Assembly (NCBI GenBank): GCA_964569425.1
Contig: CAZMVD010000007.1
Span: 1,477-65,476, forward strand
Reading direction: 5' to 3'
DNA: 64,000 nt
DNA from: an uncultured Phycisphaeraceae bacterium
GTDB taxonomy: Bacteria > Planctomycetota > Phycisphaerae > UBA1845
Shown: positions 1 to 14,949 of the stretch, one piece after another
Numbering within the stretch: position 1 is the stretch's first letter
How the letters are laid out: each line of letters starts with the position of its first letter
The notes under the pieces: model-generated
Database searches by the model: none
Seen by the model: the letters and a program-made list of their open reading frames with translations, nothing else
Told to the model about the DNA's origin: nothing
Translations under genes and position numbers: made by a program

Positions 1-123
1 CCTGCGGGGGAGTATACGGCCGTGATTCGGATACCGCAGGCCGACCCGCTGTTTCGATCGCGCATGACGCGTGAGACGCAGGACTTTGCGCAGCGGCTGC
101 AGGAGGGGGGGGGAACGCGATGA
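1..123 (+). CDS. 3' end of an upstream ORF cut by the window edge (possibly a minor pseudopilin)
   Basis: Frame is open from base 1 to TGA at 121-123 (...RLQEGGGTR*). ATGA overlap with the gspK-like start at 120. Function is guessed only from its position upstream of a gspK-like gene. Confidence 0.3.
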   Translation, partial: PAGEYTAVIRIPQADPLFRSRMTRETQDFAQRLQEGGGTR

Positions 124-1961
124 TCACGCGGCGCGGGGTCATTCTGCCGGTGGTTCTCTTCATTCTGCTGCTGGTGGGTCTGCTGGCGGCGATGTATTCG
201 TTTCGGGTTCACGCGGACGCATCGGCGCTATATTCGGTGAGTGCGCGGATGCAGACGCGGCTGGCGGCGGAGGCCGGGATCGACCGCGTCAAGCTGCTGC
301 TTCGGACGGCGCGCTACGACATGGGGCAGTGGTATCACAACCCCGATGAACTGCACCGGATTATCGTATGGGCGCACGACAGGGACGCGAATACCTGGGG
401 GACCAACGAGGAGCTGGGCGAGGGGGCGATGGTTTATCGGTTCAGCATTGTGGCGGACGATCCGACGGACGACGAGCGTTACGTGCGCTTCGGCATTACG
501 GATGAATCGGCGCGGCTGAACCTCAACCAGGCGACGGGCGAACAGTTGGTGGCCTTGATCCAGGCGGTTTTTCCGGAGGATCAGGGAATCAACGCGCGAG
601 AGATTGTGGCCGCGATTCTTGACTGGCGGGACAAGGACTCGGCGCCGAGTGGCGAGACCGGTGACACGGAAGGGGATTTCTATCGGGATCTTGAGAAGCC
701 CTACCGGGTGAAGAACGGGCCGTTCGACACGGTGGAGGAATTGCTGCTGGTGAAGGGAGTCACGGGGTATCTGTTGTACGGTGAGGATTATGATCGAAAC
801 GGGTTGCTGACTCCGAATGAAGACGACGGGGATCTTTCCTTTCCGCCGGACAATCAGGACGGCATTCTGAACCGCGGACTCTATCCGTATCTGACGGTGC
901 ACTCGCGGGAGGATGACGTGAGCAATGCCAATCGGCGGCGGGTGTATCTTTTTGGGGATGCGGCCACGCTGACGGCGGAACTGGCGGAGATTTTTCCGGA
1001 CGAGCCGGCGGTCGTTGATTTTATTGTCAGTGCTACGCGCAATCAGTCAGGCCAAGGCGGAGCGGGAGGCGGGGGCGGAAAATCGGGTGGCTCCGGTGGC
1101 GGGGGATCAAAGTCCGGTGGACGCGGTGCGGATGCGACGGTGCGCGACGGCGTTTCGCCCGCGGGCGCGCGAGCGGCGCTGGCTACCGTGCTGGCTCCCG
1201 GCGAGGACAAGGCGGCGGCGCGCCTGCAGCGCCGCGATGGTGCTCCGCCCCCCAAGGGTGGGGACCAGCCGAGCGGTGGCGACGGAACTTCTCCACCCCC
1301 AAACGACGGTGCCGCGCCGCCCCCGAGCGAATCCGAGGGCGACGTGCTGCATGGGGGCGACGAAGAAGACGACGAAGCCGATCCACAGGAGGACGGCCAG
1401 GAGCCGCCGGCAGAGGGAGAAGCCGGCGGCGGCGCGGGGCAGCGGATGAAGACGCCGGCGTCCTTACTGAAACCGCAGATGATCGGCGACGAAGAGCGTC
1501 CCAGCCCGTTGGGATTGGAGCATCTTCCGATTCTGTTGGACCGGACGACGGTGGTTTCTCCGAGTGAGCGGGGGATTTCGGGCCTGATCAACGTGAATAC
1601 GGCGCCGGCGGTTGTGTTGCGGATGCTGCCGGGGTTGTCGGAAGACCAGATTCGGATGATCATGGACATGCGCGCGGCGCTGGACGCCACGGAGAAGGCG
1701 ACGACCGCGTGGCTCCTGCAACACGAAGTCATGGATTTGACGGCCTTCGAGCGCATCGCCCCGCTGATTACGGCGCGCGGGCAGCAGTTCACGATTGAGG
1801 CGCTGGGTTACGGCGATCACATCGGGATGATTTCGCGTTTGCAGGTGGTGGTGGACATGGTTGGCCCGATTGCGCATACCATCTACTATCGGGATCTGAC
1901 GCAGCTAGGCGGGCGGTATCCGATTCGCGAAAAAGACCGGGAGGTGGTTCGTGGGAACTAG
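120..1961 (+). CDS. gspK: Type II secretion minor pseudopilin GspK-like protein with a large low-complexity insert
   Basis: N-terminal TM helix VILPVVLFILLLVGLLAAMY. GspK-type motifs FGITDESARLNLNQATGEQL, ILDWRDKDS, FDTVEELLLVKGV. C-terminal GLINVNTAPAVVLRMLPGLSEDQI helix-hairpin-helix-like segment. Confidence 0.8.
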   Translation: MITRRGVILPVVLFILLLVGLLAAMYSFRVHADASALYSVSARMQTRLAAEAGIDRVKLLLRTARYDMGQWYHNPDELHRIIVWAHDRDANTWGTNEELGEGAMVYRFSIVADDPTDDERYVRFGITDESARLNLNQATGEQLVALIQAVFPEDQGINAREIVAAILDWRDKDSAPSGETGDTEGDFYRDLEKPYRVKNGPFDTVEELLLVKGVTGYLLYGEDYDRNGLLTPNEDDGDLSFPPDNQDGILNRGLYPYLTVHSREDDVSNANRRRVYLFGDAATLTAELAEIFPDEPAVVDFIVSATRNQSGQGGAGGGGGKSGGSGGGGSKSGGRGADATVRDGVSPAGARAALATVLAPGEDKAAARLQRRDGAPPPKGGDQPSGGDGTSPPPNDGAAPPPSESEGDVLHGGDEEDDEADPQEDGQEPPAEGEAGGGAGQRMKTPASLLKPQMIGDEERPSPLGLEHLPILLDRTTVVSPSERGISGLINVNTAPAVVLRMLPGLSEDQIRMIMDMRAALDATEKATTAWLLQHEVMDLTAFERIAPLITARGQQFTIEALGYGDHIGMISRLQVVVDMVGPIAHTIYYRDLTQLGGRYPIREKDREVVRGN

Positions 1962-3564
1962 ACCCCGACAGCGCGACATCCTTGCCATCGACTGGGACAG
2001 CCGCACGCTGCGGATTGTGCATGCGCGCTACACCAAGCGCGGGGTGGACATTGATCGATTGCTTTCGGTGCCAATTCCGGCAGAGATCGATCCCGGGCAG
2101 CCAGCGCAAATGGGCGGGCACATCCGTCGGGCGCTGGACCAGGAGGGGATCACCACGCGACATGCGGTGGTGGATATTCCGCGCGATCAAGCCATTCTCA
2201 ATACACTGACTTTGCCCCTGGCGGTTCCGGAGGAACTGCCGGGTATCGTGCGCATTCAGATTGCCAAGGAGCTGCCATATTCGGTTTCCGATGCGGTGAT
2301 TGACTTTACGATCGGTCCGCAGGAGCCGGGTTCGGCGCTGGCTGAGGTGCTGGTGGCCGCGGTGCGGCGCGAGGTGCTGGAACAGTATGAGGCGACGTTC
2401 GCCGCGGCGGATCTGCGGCTCGATCGGATCGGACTTCGTCCGTATGCGAGCAAAGTGGCGGTGTGCGAGTTGCTGCGGCACGCGATGCCGGAGCGAGTGG
2501 TGTTCCTGGACGTGGGTCCGGCGCTGACGGAGATTTGCGTGTTGCGCCAGTCGTTTCTGGCATTTTCGCGCGCCGCGTCGGTGCACATACCCCGTCATGT
2601 CGGTGAAGGGACCACTCTGTCGCTGGTGCGTCCGGAGGAGCCGGGGGGACTTCACGATCCGGATCCGGTGACGGACATCACGCCGCCGGCGGTGGCGATG
2701 GCCAACGTGATTCAGTCGCTGGTGGTTGAGCTGACGCGTTCGCTCGAAGCGTACCGGGCGCGGGAGGCGGGTGCGGCGATCGATCACGTGATCATCGGCG
2801 GCGATCTGGGGGTGGAGGAACGGCTGGCGGAGGCGATCCATATTAGTTTGAGCATAACCACCGAGATTTACAACCCGGCGACGTCGTTTGGTTGGGAGCC
2901 GGACGAGGGGGCGGCGGCGTCGGCGTTTGCGGCGACGCTGGGTCTGGTGCTCACGCAGCTGCGGGAGGATGGGGGGCATTTCGACTTTCTGCATCCGAAG
3001 CGTGTGGAGTCGGTGGCGAAGAAGCGGCTGCGAAAGGCGCCGATTGTGGCGGGGGTTGCACTGCTTTTTGTGGCGGCGGGGGCGGTGGCGGTGGCGGGGA
3101 TCACCCGGCCGAGTCGGCTGGAGATGGCGCGGATTCTGGGGCAGATTGAGGCGCATCGCGCGGAGGAGAGCGACCGGCGGAAGTTTCTGGAGCTGGTGAA
3201 CGGCGCGGGCGGAATTGTGGAGTTTGATGAGCAGCAGCACATCTGGGTGGACGTGCTGCACGATGCGATGTCGGTGCTGCCGTCGCACGAGCATCTGGTG
3301 TGCGACCAGATCGACCTGAACCAGAAGGACGGGCGGATTACGCTGCGGACGCGAGCGCGGCAGCGCAGCGTGCCGCTCGACGCGATCGGGCAGCTAGAGG
3401 ATTTCCGCCGCGAGGGGCGGGACCGTCCGCGTTTCAAGGTGAGCATGGGCCCGCAGAACGAGAAGCCGGGCGAGAAATACCCGTTTCAACAGGATCTGCG
3501 TATCCAGATTCTGGACGATACGCAGCCGAAGCGATCGACGAGTCGGACAGCCGGGGGCGGATAG
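1951..3564 (+). CDS. GspL / PilM-PilN-like assembly protein (actin-like cytoplasmic domain, TM helix, periplasmic domain)
   Basis: GTG start overlaps the gspK end by 11 nt. PilM-like N-terminus ILAIDWDSRTLRIVHARY...AVVDIPRDQAILNTLTLP. TM helix APIVAGVALLFVAAGAVAVAGI at about residue 355, followed by a periplasmic region of about 160 aa. Confidence 0.7.
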   Translation: MGTRPRQRDILAIDWDSRTLRIVHARYTKRGVDIDRLLSVPIPAEIDPGQPAQMGGHIRRALDQEGITTRHAVVDIPRDQAILNTLTLPLAVPEELPGIVRIQIAKELPYSVSDAVIDFTIGPQEPGSALAEVLVAAVRREVLEQYEATFAAADLRLDRIGLRPYASKVAVCELLRHAMPERVVFLDVGPALTEICVLRQSFLAFSRAASVHIPRHVGEGTTLSLVRPEEPGGLHDPDPVTDITPPAVAMANVIQSLVVELTRSLEAYRAREAGAAIDHVIIGGDLGVEERLAEAIHISLSITTEIYNPATSFGWEPDEGAAASAFAATLGLVLTQLREDGGHFDFLHPKRVESVAKKRLRKAPIVAGVALLFVAAGAVAVAGITRPSRLEMARILGQIEAHRAEESDRRKFLELVNGAGGIVEFDEQQHIWVDVLHDAMSVLPSHEHLVCDQIDLNQKDGRITLRTRARQRSVPLDAIGQLEDFRREGRDRPRFKVSMGPQNEKPGEKYPFQQDLRIQILDDTQPKRSTSRTAGGG

Positions 3565-3617: not shown

Positions 3618-5303
3618 ATGAAACGAACGATGAACCGCCGAACGAAAATCCTGCTTGCGGCTTTCGGCACGCTGGTGGCCGGCGCTTTCGTTACGCGCGT
3701 GGTTTATCCCGCGTGGATCGAACCGCTGGTGACGATCGAGGAGCGCATCGCGTCGGCGCGCGAGACCCTTGAACAGTTGGAGGATCTGGAGGCGCGGGCG
3801 GAGCAGGCCAAACGTCAGTATCGCCGGTTGGCGGAACGGGCGGGGGCGATGGACCTGACTTCGGTGGCCAACAGCGTGCACGCGCGCTTGAATGACTTGA
3901 TTCTCAAGCATCGGCTGGAGGAGGCGAGCGTGGTTCCCAGTCGGGGCACCAGCGATCGCAAGACGGGTCTGGAGCGCATGCTTATTTCCGTGTCCGCCAC
4001 GGGCAGCCTGGAGGCGGCGTTGGGGTTTCTGCGCGACGCGGTGGAGTTGCCGCAGCTCCTGCGGGTCGGCAACGTGACGCTGTCGCCGACCCGATCGGGC
4101 AAGACGAGCAAGAAGCAGGAGCGTGTGACGGTTCGTATGCCCATCGAGGTGCTGGTGCTGCCGCAACAGAAGATGCTGGGCGAGCGGCTGGTCGCCGCTG
4201 ATTTTCATCAGCCGGAGACGGTGGTGCGGCATCAGGGGCGGGACTATTCGTCGATCTGGAAGCGAACGCCGTTTTCGGAGTTTGAGCCCTTGCCGCCGCT
4301 GGTGGCAAATGCGGGGCGCGAGGTCAATGTGGAGCAGGGCAAGCCGGCCTATCTGCAAGCCTCGGCGACCGGCGGCGACGGCAGATACACTTACACGTGG
4401 TCTCCGGCGGAAGGGATCAGTTCGACCTCGGGCGCGAAAGTGACGGTGGACACGGCGGAGGTGCGCACGCAGGTCTATTCGCTGACGGTGACCGACGAGA
4501 GCGAGAACAGCGCCACCGCCACCGTGAATGTGACCATTCGGGAGCCTGCACCGGTCGTGGTGCGGAACGATCCCCCTCCGCCTCCTCCTCCGCCGCCGGG
4601 TCCGAAGCGTTGGCCGGACAACAAGTTCATGCATTTGGCGATGGCGCTGATGCGGAGTGATTCGGCGAGCCAGCGACACGAGTTTATTGTGCAGAATACG
4701 CGGACCAATGAGCGGACCTATCACGCCCTGGGCGAGGAATTCGACGGCGGCGAGTTGGTATTTGTGCATCCGCGCGGGGGGTTGGTGCGTAGGCATGGAG
4801 AGTATTTCGTTTATCCGCTGGGCGGGAAGCTGGATCAGGATATGCCGGTGGATGCCGCGGCCCATTTTCCTGATCTGCAGCGGGTGGCGAGCGAGTTGCG
4901 GCTGGCGGAACAGCAAGCGCCGGCCGAGGTGCCGGAGGGCCCCGATGAGGCCGGGCTTGTTCCCGAAGCGGTTGGGACGGACGGGCCGGCGGCGGGGGTG
5001 ACCGAGGGGGGAGCCGCGGGGTCGCCGGGGGTGGATACGGGCGGCGCCGGCTCCGATGGCGCGCCACCGCAGGGGCCTGTGCCGAGTGAGGGGAGTAAGG
5101 ACCGTGCGGCGCGGCCCACCGGCTCGGCCAAGGCGACGCCGCAGGTCACCGAGGGTGCGACGCCTGCCGGGGAGACGCCGGATGCAGGCACGCGGGAGGC
5201 GCCGTCCACGGAGCCGAAGGCGGAAACCGGTGACGGTGAGGGCAAGAACACGACCCGGCCCGGGGCGCGCACGCCTACCCGGCGACGTCCCAGACCTCGA
5301 TAG
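3618..5303 (+). CDS. GspM/PilO-like bitopic membrane protein with an appended Ig-like domain, poly-Pro stretch and disordered tail
   Basis: N-terminal TM helix ILLAAFGTLVAGAFV, then coiled coil (RETLEQLEDLEARAEQAKRQYRRL), then a PilO/GspM-like alpha/beta segment (MLISVSATGSLEAALGFLRDAVELPQLLRVGNVTL). Then YTYTWSP...YSLTVTDESENSATATVNVTI, PPPPPPPPPGP and a Pro/Gly/Glu/Thr-rich tail. Confidence 0.6.
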   Translation: MKRTMNRRTKILLAAFGTLVAGAFVTRVVYPAWIEPLVTIEERIASARETLEQLEDLEARAEQAKRQYRRLAERAGAMDLTSVANSVHARLNDLILKHRLEEASVVPSRGTSDRKTGLERMLISVSATGSLEAALGFLRDAVELPQLLRVGNVTLSPTRSGKTSKKQERVTVRMPIEVLVLPQQKMLGERLVAADFHQPETVVRHQGRDYSSIWKRTPFSEFEPLPPLVANAGREVNVEQGKPAYLQASATGGDGRYTYTWSPAEGISSTSGAKVTVDTAEVRTQVYSLTVTDESENSATATVNVTIREPAPVVVRNDPPPPPPPPPGPKRWPDNKFMHLAMALMRSDSASQRHEFIVQNTRTNERTYHALGEEFDGGELVFVHPRGGLVRRHGEYFVYPLGGKLDQDMPVDAAAHFPDLQRVASELRLAEQQAPAEVPEGPDEAGLVPEAVGTDGPAAGVTEGGAAGSPGVDTGGAGSDGAPPQGPVPSEGSKDRAARPTGSAKATPQVTEGATPAGETPDAGTREAPSTEPKAETGDGEGKNTTRPGARTPTRRRPRPR

Positions 5304-5406
5304 AAGGCAGATCCCGATGTGGAACGACAGGAGGATTCGACGCGAGACTTGCGGCGTCGATTTGTGGCTTGTGCCGGACGATTCACCCAGACAGGGAAGA
5401 CCAATC

Positions 5407-7527
5407 ATGTTTCCAAGATCCGAGCGCATGTTCGCGAAGGCCGGCTCGATGTTTGCATTGCTGGTCGGGTTGATGGGGTTCGGTGCTTCGCCGCTGGTGG
5501 GCGTTGCGCAGGAGTCGCCCCCGACACCGCGACAGGCGCCGCGGGTCCGCAAGCAGGCGTCGCCGCCGCGGACCACGCCGCAGCCGAAGACGCCGTCGCC
5601 CGAGCCGGAACCTTCGAACGATGGTGCGGAGACTCCTGCGGAGCCGGTGCCGGATTCGCCGGACAAGGTTGTGATTCCGCCGGAAGTTCAGAAGAAGATC
5701 GATGAGATGCTGCAGGAGAAGCCCCAGCCTGCGGACGAGCCGGAACCGGCGGTCCAGCCCGCATCGAAGACACCGCAGCAGATTGCTGCGGAACGGGCCG
5801 AACAGCGACGGCAGGCGCGGTTGCGTGCGACAGGCCAGCAAGATGACCAGGCGACCACGCCGCCGCAGCCCGGCGCGCACCTGGCTCCGAATCCGTTTGC
5901 GGGGGGAGGGCAACCGTCGAGGCCTGGGACGCAGGCGCCGGGTAACAAGATCGAGATTCCGGCTTCGACCGAACGTGCGTCACCGCCGGAGCAGCGCAAG
6001 TATTCGTTCAGCATCAAGGACGCGGGGTATGACGTGCTGATCGAGGGCATAGCGCGCGAGACGGGGCTGGGGGTGATCGGCGAAGCGCCGCCCGACGGGA
6101 AGGTGACGTTCGTGACGGAAGAGCAACTGACATTCGATCAACTTCTGGACCGGGTGCGCATGTTGCTTTTCAACTACAAGCCGCTGGAACCGTACTGGCT
6201 GCTGCGCCGTACCACGCACCTGGAAGTCATCCGCGTGAATGACTATCTGCGGGTGATGCCCGCGGACCGGATGTTTCGGGGCGTTGCCGAGTTTCGGTCG
6301 GCCGCGCTGCCTCCGTCGGAATTGGTGCTGGTGATTTTCACACCGACCACCGGGGCGCTTTCGGAACTGAACCAAGTGCGCGATTTCATGCCGGATTATG
6401 TGCGCGTTACGCCGCTGGACGATCAGAATTCGGTGGCGATCTACGCGCTGGTGAGCGACGTGGAGAAGTACCTGTGGCTGGTGGACTTTTTCACGGGGCG
6501 CAAAGGCGACCCGCGCAAGCTGGAGATCATCGAGGTCAAGTTCATTACGCCGACGGAGGCGAACGAGAAGCTTATGTTGCTGATGTCGGCGGATGCGACC
6601 AAGCAGCCGGGACGTGCGGCTGCGATGCCGCGGGTGCGTCCCGGTGGGCCGAGCCCGTTGGACGGCATACCTGCGCCGGAGGTGAGCATCGTTCCCGAGG
6701 ATGCGCAGGGTGTTCTGATCGTGCGGGCGATGCAGGACAAAATCGACGAGATCAGGCGGTTGCTTCCTTATGTAGACGTGAACACGACGGTTAACTACCT
6801 GCCGGTGGTGATCCCGGTGCGGAATACCGATCCGCAGGCCTTGGTGGGCACGGTGCAGCAGATTCTGGGTGCGGGGGATCCTTCGACGGGGATGCCGGTT
6901 CCGGGGGGAGCGCGTCCCGTTCGGCCTCGTCGGGGCGGCCGGGCTCCGGCGGGCGCCGCTGCGTCGGTGTCGGCGGCGGACGTCACGCTGATACCGCATC
7001 CGTCCATTTCGGCGATCATCGCGACGGGTCCGGACGAGGCGGTGCAGCGGGTGCGCGAGCTGGTTCAGCTCTTTGACGTGAAGGGACAGGTGGGGCCGCT
7101 GCGGATCGCGCTGACCCATACCGATGCGGACACGGCGGTGTCGACGGTGACGCAGATCCTGCAGGGTGCGGTTCCGGGGACGACGACGCGCGGCGTTCCG
7201 ACGGGTGCCATATCGGTGTCACAGGTGGTGCCGGATCCTTCGGGTACGGCGATCTGGTTTACGGGATCGGAGAAGGATCTGGAGCTTGCGAAGCGGGTGC
7301 TGGCGGACATTGACGTGGCGGTGGAGCCGGCGCGGCTGCACATCGTACGGCTGGTGAACCAGCGGCCATCGTTTGTGGCGGCGATTCTTTCGCAGGTGGA
7401 CAGCGGGCAATTGAGTCCGTCGGCGACGCCGTCGCCCACCACGCGGGGGGGGGGGGCGGCGGCGACCGGTGGCGGCACCGGCGGGCCAGCCGGGTGGCGC
7501 AGCAGGGAAGTTTACGCCGGACGATGA
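5407..7527 (+). CDS. Barrel-less secretin N-domain array protein, 5' segment; probably one gene with 7469..14377
   Basis: ATG 5407 gives a signal peptide (MFAKAGSMFALLVGLMGFGASPLVGVAQE). The ORF-track start at 5056 would overlap the upstream gene by about 250 nt. Pro-rich spacer, N0/STN-like module (YSFSIKDAGYDVLIEGIARETGLGVIG..GKVTF..LTFDQLLDRVRMLL), then about 5 secretin N-domain-like units. The frame ends 70 nt after a G12 run. Confidence 0.7.
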   Translation: MFPRSERMFAKAGSMFALLVGLMGFGASPLVGVAQESPPTPRQAPRVRKQASPPRTTPQPKTPSPEPEPSNDGAETPAEPVPDSPDKVVIPPEVQKKIDEMLQEKPQPADEPEPAVQPASKTPQQIAAERAEQRRQARLRATGQQDDQATTPPQPGAHLAPNPFAGGGQPSRPGTQAPGNKIEIPASTERASPPEQRKYSFSIKDAGYDVLIEGIARETGLGVIGEAPPDGKVTFVTEEQLTFDQLLDRVRMLLFNYKPLEPYWLLRRTTHLEVIRVNDYLRVMPADRMFRGVAEFRSAALPPSELVLVIFTPTTGALSELNQVRDFMPDYVRVTPLDDQNSVAIYALVSDVEKYLWLVDFFTGRKGDPRKLEIIEVKFITPTEANEKLMLLMSADATKQPGRAAAMPRVRPGGPSPLDGIPAPEVSIVPEDAQGVLIVRAMQDKIDEIRRLLPYVDVNTTVNYLPVVIPVRNTDPQALVGTVQQILGAGDPSTGMPVPGGARPVRPRRGGRAPAGAAASVSAADVTLIPHPSISAIIATGPDEAVQRVRELVQLFDVKGQVGPLRIALTHTDADTAVSTVTQILQGAVPGTTTRGVPTGAISVSQVVPDPSGTAIWFTGSEKDLELAKRVLADIDVAVEPARLHIVRLVNQRPSFVAAILSQVDSGQLSPSATPSPTTRGGGAAATGGGTGGPAGWRSREVYAGR
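7445..7456 (+). repeat. G12 homopolymer tract at the frame break between ORFs 5407..7527 and 7469..14377
   Basis: Twelve consecutive G counted at 7445-7456, the longest G run I saw in the window. The upstream ORF is in frame 1 and the downstream ORF in frame 2, so a tract of 11 G (or 14) would fuse them. Confidence 0.95.
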
Positions 7528-10500
7528 GCAGGGTCGGCTGTACGTGCTGTGCACGGACTCGGAGTGGGAGGCGTACGGTAAGGTCATTTCGGATCTGGAG
7601 AATGAGACGGCGCTGCGCGAGTTTGTGCTCTTGCCGGTCAAGAACATTCCGGTGGACGAAGCGCTGAACAAGATCGCGGCGTTGATTCCTTTGAGTGCTG
7701 CCGGGGTGGCGACGGCGCCGGGGGTCGCCGGCAAGGAGGCGACCAAGATCCGCTGCGAGACGACGGCGGACGGAATCCTGGTCCTTGGGGCTAACGAGAC
7801 AGAGATTCAGTCGATGCGGGAGCTGCTGGCGGTGTTCGATCATGCCAGCGACATCGAAGAGCGGACGTTTGAGATCAAGTTCGCCGACCCGGCGGAGGTG
7901 AAAGCCGCGGTAGAGGCGTTGTTGACGGAGGGGCCGGCTACCACGACGCCGACTGCGGGGGCGCGGCGCGCGCGCGGCGCGGCGCCGCGTGATCCGTCGT
8001 TGGGCGCAGCGTCCACGGCGGCGCTGACCATCGTGCAGGTGGACACGCGGCTGATCGTCAAGGCGTCGCCGTCGGTCATGCAACAGGTCGCTGCTTACAT
8101 CGAACAGTTCGATGTCCGCGCCGACAAGCGGACGGTGCGGGTTTATGAGAATTTTCCGCCCGGAGCGGATATTGACGCCATCGCCAGCACGCTTTCGACG
8201 GTGTTGGGGGGGAGCAGTTCGCGCGGGGCGGCGGCGCCGCGGCCCACCGCTCGGCAACCGGGCAGTGCGCCGAGCGGTCCGGAGGGTCCGCAGTTCATCC
8301 CGCAGCCGGCGACGGGCAAGCTGATTGTCATTGCGCAGCCGTTCATGTTCGAGGAGATCGAAGAGCTGCTGAACATGCTGCGGAAGACGGAGGTGACCGA
8401 GCCCACTTTGGTGGAGTACGTGCCGATCAAATATGCCGATCCGACCGAGTTGGTGCAGAGCATTGAGCCGATTCTGACGGTCAAGGTTCGTAATCTCATC
8501 CGGTCGGGTGAAGTGACTGAGTCCATGGTTGAGGATCCGGCGGCGGGGGGCGTGCGGGCGCCGCGGGTTCGGGTTCCGGGGGCGGCCACATCAAACGACC
8601 GACCGTATCACCTTGCGGCGGATGTGCGTAACAAGCGCGTGGTGGTGGTGGCGACGCGGAAAATCATCGACGCGGCGAAGGAGTTGATCGGCGATTTCGA
8701 CACGCGGGCGGAAGTGCCCGGGGTGGTGTTCGAGTTTATCGAGGTCAAGCACGTGGATCCGGCGCAACTGGTGGAGCAACTGGATCCGTTGCTGGCGTTG
8801 AAGGTTCAAGAACTGGTGCGCGGGGGCGAACTTGCGGATGAGCCGGACGCCTCGGCCCCGGGGGGTGCGGCCAAGGGGGCGGTGCGCATGCCCGGCCGGC
8901 CGATCCTTGATTCGCGGCAGCGTTACCACATCGCGGCCGACGAGCGCAACCGGCGGATCGTGGTGGCGGCGGCGCAGCCGGTGGTGGATGAGGCGCGGTC
9001 GCTGGTGGCGATGTTCGACAAGCCGGACAGCAAGGACACGCGCATTGAGGTGCGCACCGTGGCGATGCAGCACGGGGATCCGGTGGAGGTGGCGGAGAAG
9101 ATCGAGCCGCTGCTGTCGATGAAGGTTCAGCAGTTGGTGTACGCGGGCGAGTTGGCGGAGGAGGGCGGCGTGACGGCAACGCCCGGCGCCGTAACCCCGG
9201 GGCGGCCGCTGAAAATGCCGCGGGCCGGGGGGGCCAGCAAGCGATACCACATGGAGCCGGACCAGCGGAACAAGCAGATTGTTATTGCGGCGCCGACGGC
9301 GGTGATCGACGAGGCGGTCAAGCTGATTGCGGAGTTTGATAAGCCGTCGGATGCGTCCAAGCTCGTTTTCGAAACCGTGGTGCTGCACAACGCCGACCCC
9401 AATGACATGGTCAAGACCATCAAGGAGATGATCGGCGCTCCACAGCGGGCGGTGACGACCCGACGACCGGGGGTGCCGGCCGCGCCGGTGCCGGAGGCGA
9501 TTCTGACTTCGTCGCTGGCCATCGCCGCGGCCCCCGGCGGGGGGGCGGTGGTGCTTCAGGGTCCGGCGGAAGAGGTGGCGCAGGCGAAGGAATGGGTGGG
9601 GCATCTCGATTCCATGGCGACCAGCGGTCGGCAGATCAAGATTTACGAGATCAAGTACGCCGACACCAAGACGCTGGTGGACATCATCATGAACGTGGTG
9701 GATAGCGCGAGCCGCGAGGCTCCGAAGCGCGGCGCGCTGCCTCGCGGGCTGGGCAAGGAGAGCGAGGAGGAGGACTTTTTTGAGACTTCGATCACCCGGA
9801 TCGGCAAGGATGTGTACATCAAGGCGGATTTGATCGCGGACACGATGGTGGTGGTGGCCGGTCCGGCGAAGATCACCGAGGTGGACGCGATCATCGCGCA
9901 GATGGACACCAAGGAGACGGAGGAGGTCACCAAGAAGCCGGTGGTGCCGCGTGAATACATCGACCTGCAATACGCGACGGCCAGGGACGCGGCGGACGCG
10001 CTGGATGCGATTCTGAAGGACCGATGGGAATCGAGCGAGGATCGTCCGAAGGTGACCACGGGGTTGTTCGGGGAGACGCTGATCGTGTCGCACCCGGACG
10101 AGTCGCGGCTGGCGGAAGTACGCGAGCTGGTGGCGACGCTGGTGGACAAGCCGGACCCGAAGAAGTTCCGTGAGACGCGGCGCATGATCACGTCGCCGTC
10201 GAACATTCCGCCGCGCGATCTGATCATGATGCTGCAACTCAACAATCCGGACATTGAGTTCGAGCTGATCGACGGTACGCCGCAGGACGAGGACAAGTTT
10301 ATTATCGAGCGGGTCAAGGCGCAGCCACCGCCGCCGGCGGTGAAGCCGCAGGCCGAGGGGCGGCGGCCGGCGCCGGCCGGTTCGCCCCAAGCGGACGCCG
10401 GTTCTGCGTTGATCCCTGCGCCGCTGCGCGTTGCGGCGACTGCGGTGTTGTGTGCGGCGCTGGCCCAGGTGCCGGAGGGGGCGGAGCCGGAAGGGGTACC

Positions 10501-13500
10501 TCCGCCGGAAGAGGAAGAAGAAATCGAACCGGAGCCGGAACTGAGTCAGGCGCAACTGGATGCGATGTTGCGGCAGGCACAGGAAGCGCTGATCCGGCAG
10601 GGAGTGCAGCCGAAGGAATCGCCCGAAAAGAAGAAAAGCGAAGGGGAGAAATCGGAAGAACAGGAGCGGTCGAAGTCCATCGGCAAGGAGTTCAAGGGTC
10701 AGAAGATCAAGGCGGTCATCGACACCAAGACCGGCGCGGTGACTCTGATCGGTCCCGAGGGTGTCGTGGAGCAGATCCCGGACTTGATCAAGGAGGTGGA
10801 GGAACAATTGAAGGACGCACCGGCGCCGCCGGATATCCGCATTTACCGCGTGCGCTACATCGACGTGTTCACGGCGCAGGACATTCTCGAAGAGATGTTC
10901 AACGCCACGCGTCAGCAGATGGCGCAGGTGCAGGCGGCGCAGCGGCAGGCGCAGCAGATGGCGATTCAGCAGCAGCGGGCGGCCCAACAGGCGGCTCAGC
11001 AGGCGGCCCGTCAGCAGGAGCGGGGTGGCGAGGGCCAACAGCCCGGGCGACAGCCGCAGCAGCCTCAGCCGGTGCCGATTCCCGAGTTGCCGGCCACTGC
11101 GGTGCGCGTGTATCCCAACCCGCGCGACCGCACGCTGATTCTGCGGGCGGATACCAATCAGTACCCGGCGATCGAGGAGTTGCTGGCGACCATCGACCAG
11201 CCCAAGCCGTATGACAATCTTTATCGCGTGATTCCGCTCAAGAAGCTCAACGCGACCGACGTGGAGGCGCTGCTGCGCGACTGGCTGGGACTAGACGAAT
11301 CGAAGGCACGGAGCGGGGCGCGCGGCCCGCGGGGCGCATCGCCTGAAGCGAGCGGCGCCGGCGGCCAACTGCCCAAGACCATCGTTCAGGAGACCAAGAC
11401 CGGTGTGGTCGAACTCGGGGTGGATCCGCAGGACATCAAAATCTCCAGCAACCTGGAGACCAACAGCATTCTGGTCATGGCTCCGCAAGCGGCGCTGGAT
11501 TACGTTGAAGAATTGATCGCGGACCTCGAGAGCCAGGACGTGGCGAAGCGTGAGTGGAAGAGCTATCAGCTTCAACATGCTGACGTGGAGGAGGTGGCCG
11601 ACTATCTGGCCACGCGCATCAACCAGGGTCGCCCCGGCGCAGGGGCGACGCGGGGCAAGGGTGCCCCCGGCGGGTCGGCGGATGGAGGCGGATCGCTTAA
11701 TACGGCGAGTTTCATTCCTTATCCGCGTCTGCAGATGCTTTCGGTGCAGGCCACGGCCGAGCAGATCGCGGAGGTCGATAAGTTGATCGTAGAGCTGGAT
11801 GTGCCGGCCGGGGGTGAGAACTTTCAGTCGGTGGTGCTTGCGCATGCCGACGCCAAGCTGGTGGCGGACACGTTGGATTCCATGTTCGGCGGCGGGGGTG
11901 GAGCGCGGGGGGCGCGAGGGGCGGCTCCCACGGCGTCCGCGGTGGCCAAGTTCATCGGCGAGGAGGGGGGGCGGGTGCTCTTTTTCAGCGCGCCGGAGCG
12001 GCTGCACGAGCGCATTCACGTGGTCATCAAGGATATCGAAGAGCAGTCGCAGGGGCGCGATCAACTACGGGTGATTCAATTGCAATATGCCCGCGCCAGC
12101 ATGGTGGCCGATGCGATCGATTCGGCCTATGGGGCCGGCCGGCGGACGGGGGCGGCGCGGGGCAAGGGGGCCGCGGGCGGCGGGGCGCGGGTCAGCGTGA
12201 CCGCCAGCGATGCGACGCGGCAGCTTTTCGTGATGACGGACGACGCGATGTTTGCGGAGGTGGAGTCGCTGGTGAAGTCGCTGGACACGGAGCGGGGCAT
12301 CGGCTTCGACTTTCGCATTTATCCGCTGAAGCACGCGGACGCGCGGGCGGTGTACACGACGATGAACAAGCTGATCACCGACTATCTGCGCCGGTTGCCG
12401 CCGCAGACGCCGATCGACCCGTTCAGCGTGGAGGTGGACGACAAGGCCAACGCGCTGGTGGTGCTGGGCAGCCCGACGATTTTCGGGTTTGTGGAGGATT
12501 CGCTGAAGACTATCGACACGCCGGCCAACGCGCCGAGCCCGCCGGGCGTACTGATGGTGGTGCTCAAGACGGCGGATGCCACGGAGGTGGCACAGAATAT
12601 CAATCGGTTGTGGAGCACCAAGATCAAGGAGGGCGAGGTGCCGCCCACGGCCGAGGCCAACCGCACGCTCAATATGGTCATCGTCCGCGGCACGCAGAAG
12701 CAGATTGACGACATTCGCAGCCAGGTGATCGACCCGCTGGAACAGCAGGCGGCGGCGCAACTTCTCACCGAGACCATCACCCTCAAACACGCGCTGGCCG
12801 AGGACGTGGCTGAGTCGCTGACTCGCATCTTCGACGACAAGCGCAAGGCGCTGCAGACCACGGGCGGGCGGGGGCCGGGCGGGGCGGCTTCGCCGCTGGA
12901 TCTGGCGGTGGTGGTTACGCCGCTGGTGAATACCAACCAGGTGGTGGTGCAGGCGAACGAGGCGAACCTGGGGTTCATCAAGGAGCGGATTGCGCAGCTC
13001 GATCTGCCGGAGTTTGCGGATACTGCGGTAACCACGACGAAGGTCTATGCGGCGGTCGCGGCCGATCCCAACGCGGTGGTGAACATGATCCGCGAGTGGA
13101 GCCGCACACAACAGCAGACCGCGGGCGCCAACCGCCGGATGTCGCAGAAGGACGTGATCGTCGCGGTGGCCGATCCGCTGACGCAGACGGTGATCGTCAC
13201 GGCGAGCGAGTCGAATCACCAGCGGGTCAAGGAGATGATCGACGGGCTGGACGCGGAAAGCGGCGAGGTGAAGCCGACGGTGCGGACGATCAAGATCAAG
13301 TACGCCGACGCATACGCGATTCAGGAGGCGATCGGCAAGCTGTTCCGCGGGGACGGGCGCAATCCGCGCGAGCAGGTCATTGCCACGGCCGATGCGAATT
13401 CCAACAGCGTGGTGGTTTCGGCGAGCAGCGACAACCAACGGCGGGTGGAGGAACTCATCGCCACGCTCGACGCGCCGGACGCGGCGCAGCGCGACGTGCA

Positions 13501-14377
13501 GGTGATCCGTTTGGAAAACGCCGACGCGGCGGCGGTGGCCAAGACGCTGGACGAGATCTTTGTGAAGTCCGCGCCAAAGTCGGCCGGGGCGCAGGCGCCG
13601 CCGATTTCGATTTCTGCGCTGGAGGGGTCGCGGGCGGTGGTGGTGAAGAGCAAGCCGGAGGATTTCACGCGGATCGAGGCGGCGGCGAAGGCGATGGACA
13701 GCCGTGACGCCCTGGCCGACGCGCCCAAGATCATCCTTCTCCAGCATGCCCGGGCCGATCAAATCGCGCACATGCTCCAGCAGACGTTTGAGCAGCAGCG
13801 GGGCGGCGGGCGGGCGAGCAAGTCGCCGCCGACGGTGGTGGCCAACGAGCAGATCAACGGTCTGGTGGTGCGGGCCGAGCCGGCGGACCTGGCGGGCATC
13901 GAGAGCCTGGTTGCGCAGCTCGACAGTGACAAGATTCCGCCGCAGTCGCGGTTCAAGGTTATTGAGCTGGACGCGGGTGTGAACCTGGCCGACCTGGCTG
14001 AAAAGGTAGAGCTGACTATCAACGAGGCGGCCAAGGCGCAGGTGCCGCCGGGCAGTCGGCAGGCGCCGCCGAGCATCACGGTCATGGCGGACGCACGGAC
14101 CGGCATGCTGATCGTGGGCGGGTCGCCCTCGTTGTTTGCTGATGCTGAGGAGATGGCCAGGACGATTGTAGATAAGGGACCGAAGGGCAACACGGTCACT
14201 TCGATCTTCAAGCCGCAGAACGTGGCGGTGGAGGATATTCAGCGGTTGATCGACCAGTTGACGAACCCGGAGGCCGCGAGTGAGAGCGGGCGGCGAAGTG
14301 GCAGCGGTAGCGGCACGCGCGGGGGCACGACACGTCCTACGAGTCGGCCAAGACCGCGTACGACCCCGCAGCGTTGA
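7469..14377 (+). CDS. Barrel-less secretin N-domain array protein, 3' segment (about 23 tandem N-domain units, central acidic/Lys and Gln-rich spacers, no secretin C-domain)
   Basis: 2302-aa ORF with no signal peptide of its own. Recurrent unit: beta-alpha (e.g. VEYVPIKYADPTELVQSIEPIL, IRIYRVRYIDVFTAQDILEEMF, VRTIKIKYADAYAIQEAIGKLF), a variable linker, then hxxDxRTNxLhV..xxhxxhxxLIxxLD (e.g. VIATADANSNSVVVSASSDNQRRVEELIATLD). Ends with a half unit (VTSIFKPQNVAVEDIQRLIDQL) and a Ser/Gly/Arg/Pro tail. Confidence 0.75.
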   Translation: MAAPAGQPGGAAGKFTPDDEQGRLYVLCTDSEWEAYGKVISDLENETALREFVLLPVKNIPVDEALNKIAALIPLSAAGVATAPGVAGKEATKIRCETTADGILVLGANETEIQSMRELLAVFDHASDIEERTFEIKFADPAEVKAAVEALLTEGPATTTPTAGARRARGAAPRDPSLGAASTAALTIVQVDTRLIVKASPSVMQQVAAYIEQFDVRADKRTVRVYENFPPGADIDAIASTLSTVLGGSSSRGAAAPRPTARQPGSAPSGPEGPQFIPQPATGKLIVIAQPFMFEEIEELLNMLRKTEVTEPTLVEYVPIKYADPTELVQSIEPILTVKVRNLIRSGEVTESMVEDPAAGGVRAPRVRVPGAATSNDRPYHLAADVRNKRVVVVATRKIIDAAKELIGDFDTRAEVPGVVFEFIEVKHVDPAQLVEQLDPLLALKVQELVRGGELADEPDASAPGGAAKGAVRMPGRPILDSRQRYHIAADERNRRIVVAAAQPVVDEARSLVAMFDKPDSKDTRIEVRTVAMQHGDPVEVAEKIEPLLSMKVQQLVYAGELAEEGGVTATPGAVTPGRPLKMPRAGGASKRYHMEPDQRNKQIVIAAPTAVIDEAVKLIAEFDKPSDASKLVFETVVLHNADPNDMVKTIKEMIGAPQRAVTTRRPGVPAAPVPEAILTSSLAIAAAPGGGAVVLQGPAEEVAQAKEWVGHLDSMATSGRQIKIYEIKYADTKTLVDIIMNVVDSASREAPKRGALPRGLGKESEEEDFFETSITRIGKDVYIKADLIADTMVVVAGPAKITEVDAIIAQMDTKETEEVTKKPVVPREYIDLQYATARDAADALDAILKDRWESSEDRPKVTTGLFGETLIVSHPDESRLAEVRELVATLVDKPDPKKFRETRRMITSPSNIPPRDLIMMLQLNNPDIEFELIDGTPQDEDKFIIERVKAQPPPPAVKPQAEGRRPAPAGSPQADAGSALIPAPLRVAATAVLCAALAQVPEGAEPEGVPPPEEEEEIEPEPELSQAQLDAMLRQAQEALIRQGVQPKESPEKKKSEGEKSEEQERSKSIGKEFKGQKIKAVIDTKTGAVTLIGPEGVVEQIPDLIKEVEEQLKDAPAPPDIRIYRVRYIDVFTAQDILEEMFNATRQQMAQVQAAQRQAQQMAIQQQRAAQQAAQQAARQQERGGEGQQPGRQPQQPQPVPIPELPATAVRVYPNPRDRTLILRADTNQYPAIEELLATIDQPKPYDNLYRVIPLKKLNATDVEALLRDWLGLDESKARSGARGPRGASPEASGAGGQLPKTIVQETKTGVVELGVDPQDIKISSNLETNSILVMAPQAALDYVEELIADLESQDVAKREWKSYQLQHADVEEVADYLATRINQGRPGAGATRGKGAPGGSADGGGSLNTASFIPYPRLQMLSVQATAEQIAEVDKLIVELDVPAGGENFQSVVLAHADAKLVADTLDSMFGGGGGARGARGAAPTASAVAKFIGEEGGRVLFFSAPERLHERIHVVIKDIEEQSQGRDQLRVIQLQYARASMVADAIDSAYGAGRRTGAARGKGAAGGGARVSVTASDATRQLFVMTDDAMFAEVESLVKSLDTERGIGFDFRIYPLKHADARAVYTTMNKLITDYLRRLPPQTPIDPFSVEVDDKANALVVLGSPTIFGFVEDSLKTIDTPANAPSPPGVLMVVLKTADATEVAQNINRLWSTKIKEGEVPPTAEANRTLNMVIVRGTQKQIDDIRSQVIDPLEQQAAAQLLTETITLKHALAEDVAESLTRIFDDKRKALQTTGGRGPGGAASPLDLAVVVTPLVNTNQVVVQANEANLGFIKERIAQLDLPEFADTAVTTTKVYAAVAADPNAVVNMIREWSRTQQQTAGANRRMSQKDVIVAVADPLTQTVIVTASESNHQRVKEMIDGLDAESGEVKPTVRTIKIKYADAYAIQEAIGKLFRGDGRNPREQVIATADANSNSVVVSASSDNQRRVEELIATLDAPDAAQRDVQVIRLENADAAAVAKTLDEIFVKSAPKSAGAQAPPISISALEGSRAVVVKSKPEDFTRIEAAAKAMDSRDALADAPKIILLQHARADQIAHMLQQTFEQQRGGGRASKSPPTVVANEQINGLVVRAEPADLAGIESLVAQLDSDKIPPQSRFKVIELDAGVNLADLAEKVELTINEAAKAQVPPGSRQAPPSITVMADARTGMLIVGGSPSLFADAEEMARTIVDKGPKGNTVTSIFKPQNVAVEDIQRLIDQLTNPEAASESGRRSGSGSGTRGGTTRPTSRPRPRTTPQR

Positions 14378-14623: not shown

Positions 14624-14949
14624 TGAGGCGGCGTCTTGGGAGCGCAACGTGGAGCGTCGAGCGCACCTGTACGGTGCGTATCGGCAAAGAACTTATCCCC
14701 ATGACTGAATCGCGGGCGTCCGCGCGGGCTGCCCTTGACGCTTCGCGTAAAGGGGAGCAAGCCCGCGGCGCGCGTCGATATTGGGATAGGTCCTGAAGTG
14801 CGTATTGGCGAAAAATCACAGCCCCCGTTCGGTGGGGCGGAGGGCGGGTATTTTTTCGGTTACCGGCGAGCGCCGGTCGGGTATCATACGGCGCGGCGAC
14901 CGTGTCGCGGGCCGGATCTGAGAGTCGGGCGAACCAGGGGACAGAACGG

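Follow-up and report, generated by a model that had tools for sequence, protein, structure and literature searches.

Slipped-strand mispairing at intragenic G/C runs of around 8–13 nucleotides (nt) is found in Campylobacter, Neisseria, Haemophilus, and Helicobacter; to our knowledge, C. jejuni does not carry mismatch repair of the MutS/MutL type. Programmed slippage or frameshifting is exemplified by Thermus dnaX with an A9 run, Shigella mxiE with a T9 run, and the +1 shift of prfB, and productive transcriptional slippage is, as far as we know, documented mainly for A/T runs. Poly-G/C contingency loci are treated, for example, in the work on PhasomeIt (PMC6321876). In Bifidobacterium breve UCC2003, the sortase-dependent pilus genes bbr_0113a/b and bbr_1889a/b carry intragenic tracts of G11 and G10, and a single-colony culture was found to contain 37% G11 and 59% G12, with polarity on the downstream genes (PMC9187656). 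Oligonucleotide controls in the same work showed omission of one base in ~5% and addition in ~1% (PMC9187656). G-tracts are also a known difficulty for Illumina chemistry and assembly (PMC9187656, PMC8808543), with indel errors being mainly a problem for tracts longer than 14 bp (PMC8808543).

A split Secretin_N array gene in a type II secretion-like operon

The window analyzed here is a 64,000-nt stretch from a metagenome draft of an uncultured planctomycete, and all coordinates are window positions. It contains a type II secretion (T2SS)-like operon with the following features:

120–1961, + strand: GspK-like gene, upstream in the operon
1951–3564, + strand: PilM_2/GspL-like gene, upstream in the operon
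3618–5303, + strand: gene for a 561-aa protein with a PKD-like domain, upstream in the operon
5407–7527 (listed as 5056(5407)..7527), + strand: upstream ORF in frame 1, with a 706-aa product as assembled
7340–7600, + strand: interrupted Secretin_N unit, placed by a Pfam match on the fused sequence and alignment with 11 relatives
7445–7456, + strand: G12 homopolymer, for which the in-frame lengths are G11, G8, or G14
7469–14377, + strand: downstream ORF in frame 2, 2,302 aa from GTG 7469, continuing the same gene
14902–19446, + strand: secretin gene with 10 Secretin_N matches and the PF00263 barrel, next in the operon

The tract consists of exactly 12 G with a C on each side and lies between the overlapping frame-1 and frame-2 ORFs, frame 2 being already open from 7415; the letters and the ORFs thus bear out the layout described in an earlier note on this DNA. 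Computational removal of one G yields a protein of 2,989 aa without an internal stop, in line with the fusion of ~2,990 aa anticipated there, and a G11 tract would encode R-G-G-G and then RRR (RGGGRRR). The upstream ORF starts with MFPRSERMFAKAGSMFALLVGLMGFGASPLVGVAQE, which by eye resembles a signal peptide, and continues with a Pro-rich spacer, three Secretin_N matches, and 23 out-of-frame residues (AAATGGGTGGPAGWRSREVYAGR) that end at a TGA stop at 7525–7527. The start of the downstream ORF, VAAPAGQPGGAAGKFTPDDE, is without a hydrophobic signal sequence, again judged by eye and in agreement with the earlier claim that this half has no signal peptide of its own. The matching half-unit peptides pointed out in the earlier note are likewise present, LHIVRLVNQRPSFVAAILSQVD in frame 1 upstream and FTPDDEQGRLYVLCTDSEWEAYGKVISDLE in frame 2 downstream. 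The fused (G11) protein would be marked by the junction-spanning peptide ...TTRGGGRRRPVAAPAGQPGGAAGK... and the out-of-frame tail of the upstream ORF by AAATGGGTGGPAGWR.

Both ORFs match Secretin_N in several stretches above the Pfam cut-off of 28.2 bits, the upstream ORF with 80.7 bits over 3 stretches and the downstream ORF with 520.8 bits over 16, and a T2SS-type secretin is their partner. The secretin C-terminal barrel (PF00263) was absent from both ORFs in the profile search, so the array protein is not a secretin proper, and a TIGR02517 score of 481 bits reflects 17 partial N-domain stretches. In the fused 118-aa junction, residues 23–109 match Secretin_N (PF03958) at profile positions 3–65 of 69 (E 5.9e-5), whereas neither half alone gives a match to the same profile, which places the tract in the loop that connects the first beta-alpha part to the second beta strand. 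The beta1-alpha1 part of the interrupted unit, LHIVRLVNQRPSFVAAILSQV, is read in frame 1 and the beta2-beta3-alpha2 part, KFTPDDEQGRLYVLCTDSEWEAYGKVISDLE, in frame 2. The break had been placed in a linker of the repeat array; it does split a single unit of that array, but Pfam locates it in a loop internal to the unit rather than between units. This variable, basic Gly/Arg loop tolerates length change in the alignment with 11 relatives.

Domain content and gene order establish that the split gene is predicted to encode one exported Secretin_N-repeat protein of ~2,990 aa, directly before the secretin in a type II secretion-like operon. The array-then-secretin order is the same in the relatives L013 and L014, and a literature search found no paper on planctomycete Secretin_N arrays of this kind. 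For annotation, both ORFs are best regarded as a single ~2,990-aa gene whose in-frame tract is G11, not as a truncated protein and an orphan array, and structural or functional readings of this "mega-secretin" system should rest on the fused protein.

Tract length and reading frame in relatives

All 11 aligned relatives have one continuous frame across the junction, and their open frames span 2,457–3,381 aa where the contig contains the entire gene. A single ORF of ~3,000 aa in every aligned relative identifies G11 as the in-frame state and G12 as one base too many. Comparing tract length among relatives, as the earlier note had proposed, gave shorter runs, both in frame, in the two closest: G6 in L013 (P0003; contig with 88.8% nt identity; 2,992 aa) and G9 in L014 (P0004; 85.5%; 2,994 aa). 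The remaining aligned relatives have no G-run at the site. The G9 of L014 encodes RGGARRR, while the L013 tract, GCGGGGGG, encodes RGGRRR and is interrupted by a synonymous C, which stabilizes the run. The presence of G6 and G9 at the same spot indicates that the tract is young and its length still changing; the alignment establishes an apparent acquisition of the G-run in this loop by the species-level clade, with the longest version in the window. When the gene is aligned over 9 kb to its two closest orthologues, all other indels are multiples of three and the sole frame-breaking length difference maps to the tract, so the split is not a chance coincidence.

Searches beyond these genomes returned little. 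The exact flanks with a variable G gap had 0 matches in metagenome contigs and genome contigs, the collections searched contained no second assembly of the same strain, and a metagenome-contig search with the junction peptide recovered only one relative, a distant one with 36% identity.

The earlier note had left a sequencing error, an on/off switch, and a frameshift site side by side. With the relatives in frame, a conserved programmed frameshift is excluded, and a conserved recoding site was rejected for the same reason, since all aligned relatives are single-frame and most are without the tract; an error or slippage is compatible with the data. There is a narrower version, in which G12 is real and fixed and full-length protein is made by transcriptional slippage or a +1 ribosomal shift of tRNA-Gly. 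A homopolymer would, on general grounds, permit perfect +1 re-pairing, and the constraint on the downstream frame is not relaxed. However, the two-frame layout is not shared even by the 89%-identical relative, and the codon directly after the run in frame 1 is GCG, neither a stop nor a rare codon, making recoding very improbable.

Constraint downstream of the tract and the age of the break

On the branch leading to the window, the 2,280 codons 3' of the tract have accumulated 216 synonymous and 23 non-synonymous changes, corresponding to 0.125 synonymous changes per site and a dN/dS of 0.036 (~0.04). An established pseudogene, in which an old frameshift left 2,302 downstream codons to decay, would fit the sequence as assembled in being out of frame. 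Yet the window branch shows no elevation over the intact L013 branch (dN/dS 0.048), and the downstream 2,302 codons (6.9 kb) contain no stop or further frameshift. Neutrality over even 5% of the window branch would have added ~30 non-synonymous changes, more than the 23 seen in total, which excludes an old pseudogene. The "true pseudogene" that the earlier note had named as its refuting outcome was accordingly rejected as an old event, with an exception for the final few per cent of the branch, and we regard it as extremely improbable. The substitution counts demonstrate that the break would be evolutionarily instantaneous, occupying no more than a few per cent of the terminal branch that leads to the window, and that the gene, presumably functional, is under strong constraint in its lineage. 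Overall, the split stems either from slippage in the very recent past or from a miscalled tract length, and it is neither a decayed gene nor a programmed frameshift.

Replication slippage or length miscall

Frame switches were detected by a codon log-likelihood, as a GC3-phase test is too weak at 64% GC and missed the G12 site itself. They occurred at 13 of 613 runs of 6–8 nt (2.1%) compared with 38 of 2,208 random sites (1.7%), so that homopolymers in the assembly show no general excess. The sole other frame switch at a run of at least 9 nt (window 105–113) is a gene boundary, two G9 runs within coding sequence (contigs C2 and C19) are in frame, and the assembly has no other run of at least 10 nt inside confident coding sequence. 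The lack of excess switching and the in-frame G9 runs support a real variant and argue against a technical miscall.

The reading we favor is that G12 may be a real +1 variant of slipped-strand replication, modal or co-modal in the sampled population, and we consider the odds on it to be even. An 11–12 G run would be intrinsically hypermutable, and cells would flip between G11 (ON) and G10 or G12 (OFF), whether selected or not. In the OFF state, translation would stop at 7527 and leave an exported fragment of 706 aa. The remaining 6.8 kb would then go untranslated; at most, translation would resume at GTG 7469, and its product would lack a signal peptide. Polarity would probably also lower expression of the secretin gene at 14902. 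That the closest relatives have shorter G-runs at this position indicates that the slippage history there is real. Against this reading, MutS and MutL are both intact, which leaves some restraint on slippage.

Alternatively, essentially all cells could be G11 with an intact gene, the extra G having come from sequencing, error correction, or assembly. We find such a miscall quite conceivable, if somewhat short of even. An intact gene in every relative and strong constraint up to the present are what would be expected if nothing were broken, and strong long-term purifying selection makes it unlikely that an OFF allele would easily reach a majority, which favors a miscalled G11. In addition, G12 is the only out-of-frame tract of its length class in confident coding sequence, and G-tracts are troublesome for Illumina chemistry and assembly (PMC9187656, PMC8808543). 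N10 and N100 gaps in the scaffolded draft are taken as a sign of short-read data, and the draft includes G/C tracts of 25–37 nt next to gaps and at the end of a contig, whose lengths are not trustworthy and where the assembler evidently struggled. On the other hand, a consensus length is normally the modal read length, and the reported Illumina indel errors lie mainly beyond 14 bp (PMC8808543). A miscall would also need an added base, whereas omission was commoner than addition in the oligonucleotide controls (PMC9187656), which makes an apparent +1 less usual for technical stutter.

A two-colour poly-G artefact, by which long G/C tracts would denote unreliable data, was considered separately and dropped because G/C runs of at least 8 nt are near few gaps or ends. 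Among 40 gaps, only 2 have such a run within 40–60 nt, as do only 5 contig ends, contig C203 is the only one ending in a long G/C tract, and a G36 sits in a real-looking (GGGGATT)n region.

Incidental variant or ON/OFF switch

Within the slippage reading, an incidental and unselected variant is the likelier possibility, though well short of even. Selection could instead maintain the tract as a reversible ON/OFF switch for the ~3,000-aa, putatively periplasmic array protein and, via polarity, the giant secretin. The resulting proposal, that a free-living, mismatch-repair-proficient planctomycete of the Phycisphaerae type uses a growing poly-G as a G11/G12 contingency switch, appears unlikely. 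It could be speculated that sub-populations would thereby shut a T2SS-like conduit, evading phages that exploit the channel or avoiding the expense of secreted public goods.

A hypermutable repeat within the coding sequence does set the frame here, and three related lineages have a G-run at corresponding codons, with lengths of 6, 9, and 12, in a loop tolerant of length change. The gene precedes an outer-membrane channel gene, in parallel to the first-gene G-tracts of the B. breve pilus operons (PMC9187656). The encoding is also improbable by codon use, as GGG accounts for 22% of the codons used for Gly and all-GGG triplets are 5-fold rarer than expected. However, the three lineages, diverged by 11–15%, offer two ON states (G6 and G9) and a single OFF state (G12), the L013 run is broken by its synonymous C, and no other aligned relative has the tract, so it is not retained in the wider clade. 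From the divergence, conservation of two GGG codons over so short a tree is estimated to match chance expectation. Moreover, the genome has no repertoire of intragenic tracts and avoids all-GGG glycine runs (GGG-GGG-GGG), with 2 observed against 11 expected, and it carries MutS and MutL.

A real G12 would represent homopolymer ON/OFF variation in the secretion system of an environmental planctomycete, a kind of switch otherwise described almost entirely from host-associated bacteria, with the 706-aa fragment as the OFF product and the downstream secretin gene probably silenced. As a lesion, the break is an ordinary one.

Comparison with known systems

As in the contingency loci of Campylobacter, Neisseria, Haemophilus, and Helicobacter, the proposal for the planctomycete is frame-based ON/OFF control of an envelope-associated gene. 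Those bacteria have many tracts conserved among strains, whereas the planctomycete has a single intragenic run of at least 10 nt, and unlike C. jejuni it possesses MutS and MutL and avoids coding G-runs. With dnaX, mxiE, and prfB it shares two overlapping frames joined at a homopolymer, but its layout is not conserved, the run is of G and not A/T, and there is no stimulatory stop or rare codon. The single one-base break, the intact relatives, and the absence of secondary lesions resemble the homopolymer-frameshifted genes of drafts and metagenome-assembled genomes, although the tract is unusually long for such a case and the closest relatives bear shorter G-runs at the site.

For the B. breve pilus genes, by contrast, heterogeneity and its effect on the pilus were measured (PMC9187656). 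Their tracts recur across Bifidobacterium species, whereas the planctomycete run is found only in three close lineages, two of which have it in frame. The planctomycete gene encodes no pilin but a Secretin_N array belonging to a diderm T2SS-like system. In B. breve, also a high-GC bacterium, the downstream operon genes need the fusion through polarity, as would probably hold for the planctomycete secretin (PMC9187656). The reference tract length is uncertain there too, with G11 annotated and G12 the commoner length measured (PMC9187656). In both, a run of 10–12 G within the coding sequence splits the gene of an exported envelope structure into an "a" ORF that has the signal peptide and a "b" ORF that has neither such a peptide nor a start signal, and a change of one base fuses the two (PMC9187656).

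Split of the array gene

Exactly 12 G residues, with C on either side, occupy window positions 7445-7456 and, as the earlier note claimed, split the gene encoding a Secretin_N repeat protein (the array gene) into two overlapping ORFs. The gene is part of an operon ordered GspK-like, PilM_2/GspL-like, 561-aa PKD-like-domain protein, array gene and secretin, an order identical in the two closest relative contigs, L013 and L014.

Features of the split gene and its downstream neighbour
5056 (longest start, ATG) or 5407 (plausible start, ATG) to TGA 7525-7527, + strand, frame 1: upstream ORF
7469 (GTG) to 14377, + strand, frame 2, open from 7415: downstream ORF
14902 (start), + strand: secretin gene, 1,514 aa, with 10 Secretin_N matches and PF00263

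In the assembled frame 1, the protein reads ...TTRGGG followed by 23 foreign residues and a stop, giving a product of 706 aa. Computational deletion of a single G yields a stop-free protein of 2,989 aa, in agreement with the fusion of about 2,990 aa anticipated from one G fewer. The array gene likely starts at ATG 5407, which is followed by a sequence (MFPRSERMFAKAGSMFALLVGLMGFGASPLVGVAQE) resembling, by eye, a signal peptide. The 117 residues that the longest ORF adds in front (5056-5406) look non-coding: they are rich in Arg and Pro, and their codons run into the tail of the gene before it (3618-5303).

Pfam searches identified three Secretin_N matches in the upstream ORF and 16 in the downstream ORF, and no secretin barrel in either. 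A 118-aa fused junction piece matched Secretin_N at profile positions 3-65 of 69 (E 5.9e-5), while neither half matched when searched alone, placing the tract in an internal loop of a single unit. The proposed break "inside a repeat-unit linker" is therefore right in substance, with the wording corrected to an internal loop. Further along the downstream ORF, a non-repeat stretch rich in Pro, Glu, Lys and Gln (residues ~1240-1420) breaks the array; it includes a segment of hydrophobic residues (LIPAPLRVAATAVLCAALAQV) as well as a coiled-coil-like run of poly-Q/A, and a weak KH_SLS1_1 Pfam match (27.5 bits) lies nearby.

Reading frame and tract length in relatives

Using the fused 402-aa junction as query, matches were found in 29 of 31 related genomes. 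In the 11 aligned relatives, the match extends from residue 1-4 to 397-402 in a single open frame without stops; on complete contigs, these frames encode 2,457-3,381 aa. The tract-bearing loop varies in length, yet it is basic and Gly-rich in all of them (e.g., RRGKKG, GRTGGVRRARK, GEGGRRRVRRP). The fused reading RGGGRRRP shares this character, in contrast to the frame-1 continuation GGGAAATGGG. The programmed-frameshift reading falls at its defining requirement, conservation in orthologues, since those aligned do not share the two-frame layout. Recoding of a real G12 is very improbable. The options first raised (sequencing error, switch or frameshift site) narrow to a miscall and a slippage variant that is reversible and very recent.

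The closest array proteins from the protein search, both from Logan assemblies, are P0003 (2,992 aa) and P0004 (2,994 aa), with 93% and 86% identity, respectively, to residues 1-500 of the downstream ORF; their genes share 88.8% and 85.5% nucleotide identity with the window gene. Homologues are labelled 'Planctomycetes' or 'Phycisphaerae bacterium' in their sources.

Tract codons in the three closest sequences
Window: ACG CGG GGG GGG GGG (G) CGG CGG CGA; G12
L013: ACG CGC GGG GGG CGG CGG CGT; RGGRRR; G6, interrupted by a synonymous C; in frame
L014: GGA CGG GGG GGG GCA AGG CGG CGA; RGGARRR; G9; in frame

Every other indel in the 9-kb three-way alignment is a multiple of three. Together, the single-frame relatives and the aligned tract codons give G11 as the in-frame length in the window. 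Judged from these alignments, the G-run is a young feature of the clade whose length has changed in real evolution.

Age of the break

Branch-specific changes were counted with L014 as third taxon, at codons where two sequences agree and the remaining one departs by a single base; downstream of the tract this covered 5,126 non-synonymous and 1,723 synonymous sites. Here, the window branch carries 216 synonymous and 23 non-synonymous changes (dN/dS about 0.036; synonymous rate 0.125 per site) and the intact L013 branch 217 and 31 (about 0.048), while dN/dS upstream of the tract is equally low. Neutrality over just 5% of the window branch would be expected to add ~30 non-synonymous changes, and no excess is present; the break thus occupies at most a few per cent of the terminal branch, is reversible, or is not real. 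This rules out an established pseudogene, and an old one is extremely unlikely.

Homopolymers in the draft genome

The draft (4.4 Mb, 229 contigs, 92% complete, 64% GC), in which the window is C7:1477-65476, contains N10 and N100 gaps, which suggest a scaffolded MAG built from short reads. A codon log-likelihood model trained on 886 long ORFs was used to call the coding frame 300 nt either side of each homopolymer.

Frame switches in the draft
Runs of 6-8 nt: 13/613 (2.1%)
Random positions (gene boundaries): 38/2,208 (1.7%)

Among runs of at least 9 nt, only two switched frame: the G12 site and window 105-113, a gene boundary at which a G9 precedes the GspK-like start codon (ATG) by 6 nt. As the rate at 6-8-nt runs is close to random and the in-CDS G9 runs at C2:55888 and C19:49426 are in frame, the draft has no general homopolymer-indel problem; G12 is the one run of at least 10 nt that lies in confident coding sequence, and the draft thus offers no internal control for runs that long.

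In the long ORFs, Gly-Gly-Gly is encoded by GGGGGGGGG (nine G's) twice vs 11 times expected from codon use, and our i.i.d. base-composition estimate suggests that G runs of 8-11 nt are depleted several-fold. Genes appear to be under selection against homopolymers. MutS and MutL are both present and intact. Several of the longest G-runs (G9-G16) lie directly 5' of ORF starts on the sense strand (window 105-113; C10:44086-44095; C1:110301-110310; C22:11094-11106; C48:22088-22103), with G10 abutting the ATG in two cases; candidate roles are SD-like elements and length switches in promoters or 5'-UTRs. Non-coding (GGGGATT)n and GGGGAATTGG-type repeats, which look G-quadruplex-prone, hold very long tracts (G36; G11CCCG15; G10, assembled as C10 on the + strand) at C3:20560-20900, C162:7560-7700 and C100:10260-10330; one adjoins an N10 gap, and their lengths are probably unreliable.

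Real variant or miscall

No second assembly of the strain was found in the genome, metagenome and protein collections searched. Consensus length usually equals modal read length, which speaks for a real G12. The same holds for the report that Illumina indels are troublesome mainly beyond 14 bp (PMC8808543), and for B. breve oligonucleotide controls, where one-base omission exceeded addition (about 5% vs 1%; PMC9187656), as the excess here is +1. Moreover, a one-colony B. breve culture contained 37% G11 and 59% G12 (PMC9187656), indicating that tracts of 11-12 G are highly unstable. A real slippage variant is our preferred reading, at about even odds; most of that weight goes to an incidental variant, and a selected switch is unlikely. 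A technical miscall of G11 is a serious possibility, short of probable: G-tracts disturb Illumina reads and assemblers (PMC9187656, PMC8808543), and the gene has been strongly constrained up to the present, so that OFF (out-of-frame) cells could have formed the majority at sampling only under weak or reversed selection.

Were G12 real, replication slippage would gain or lose one G. Translation would end at 7527, leaving an exported fragment of the N-terminal module and about three and a half N-domains, and the remaining 6.8 kb would go untranslated; restart at GTG 7469, 12 nt past the G-run, would produce a protein lacking a signal peptide. If the B. breve operons are a guide (PMC9187656), the untranslated mRNA may exert polarity on the secretin gene and would thereby close the whole outer-membrane conduit. 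Reversion to G11 would restore both array protein and conduit.

Comparison with known systems

The tract is real, young and hypermutable, and the array gene is not established as an evolved contingency locus. The tract does set the frame within coding sequence, with between-lineage states of G6 ON (in frame), G9 ON and G12 OFF in three lineages only; it is neither present in the remaining aligned relatives nor part of a genome-wide repertoire among the draft's runs. As a lesion the split is ordinary, with a modest likelihood of representing phase variation in an environmental bacterium. Its nearest documented parallel is found in B. breve pilus operons, whose first genes carry intragenic G-tracts (PMC9187656); next come Campylobacter and Neisseria with their poly-G contingency loci.
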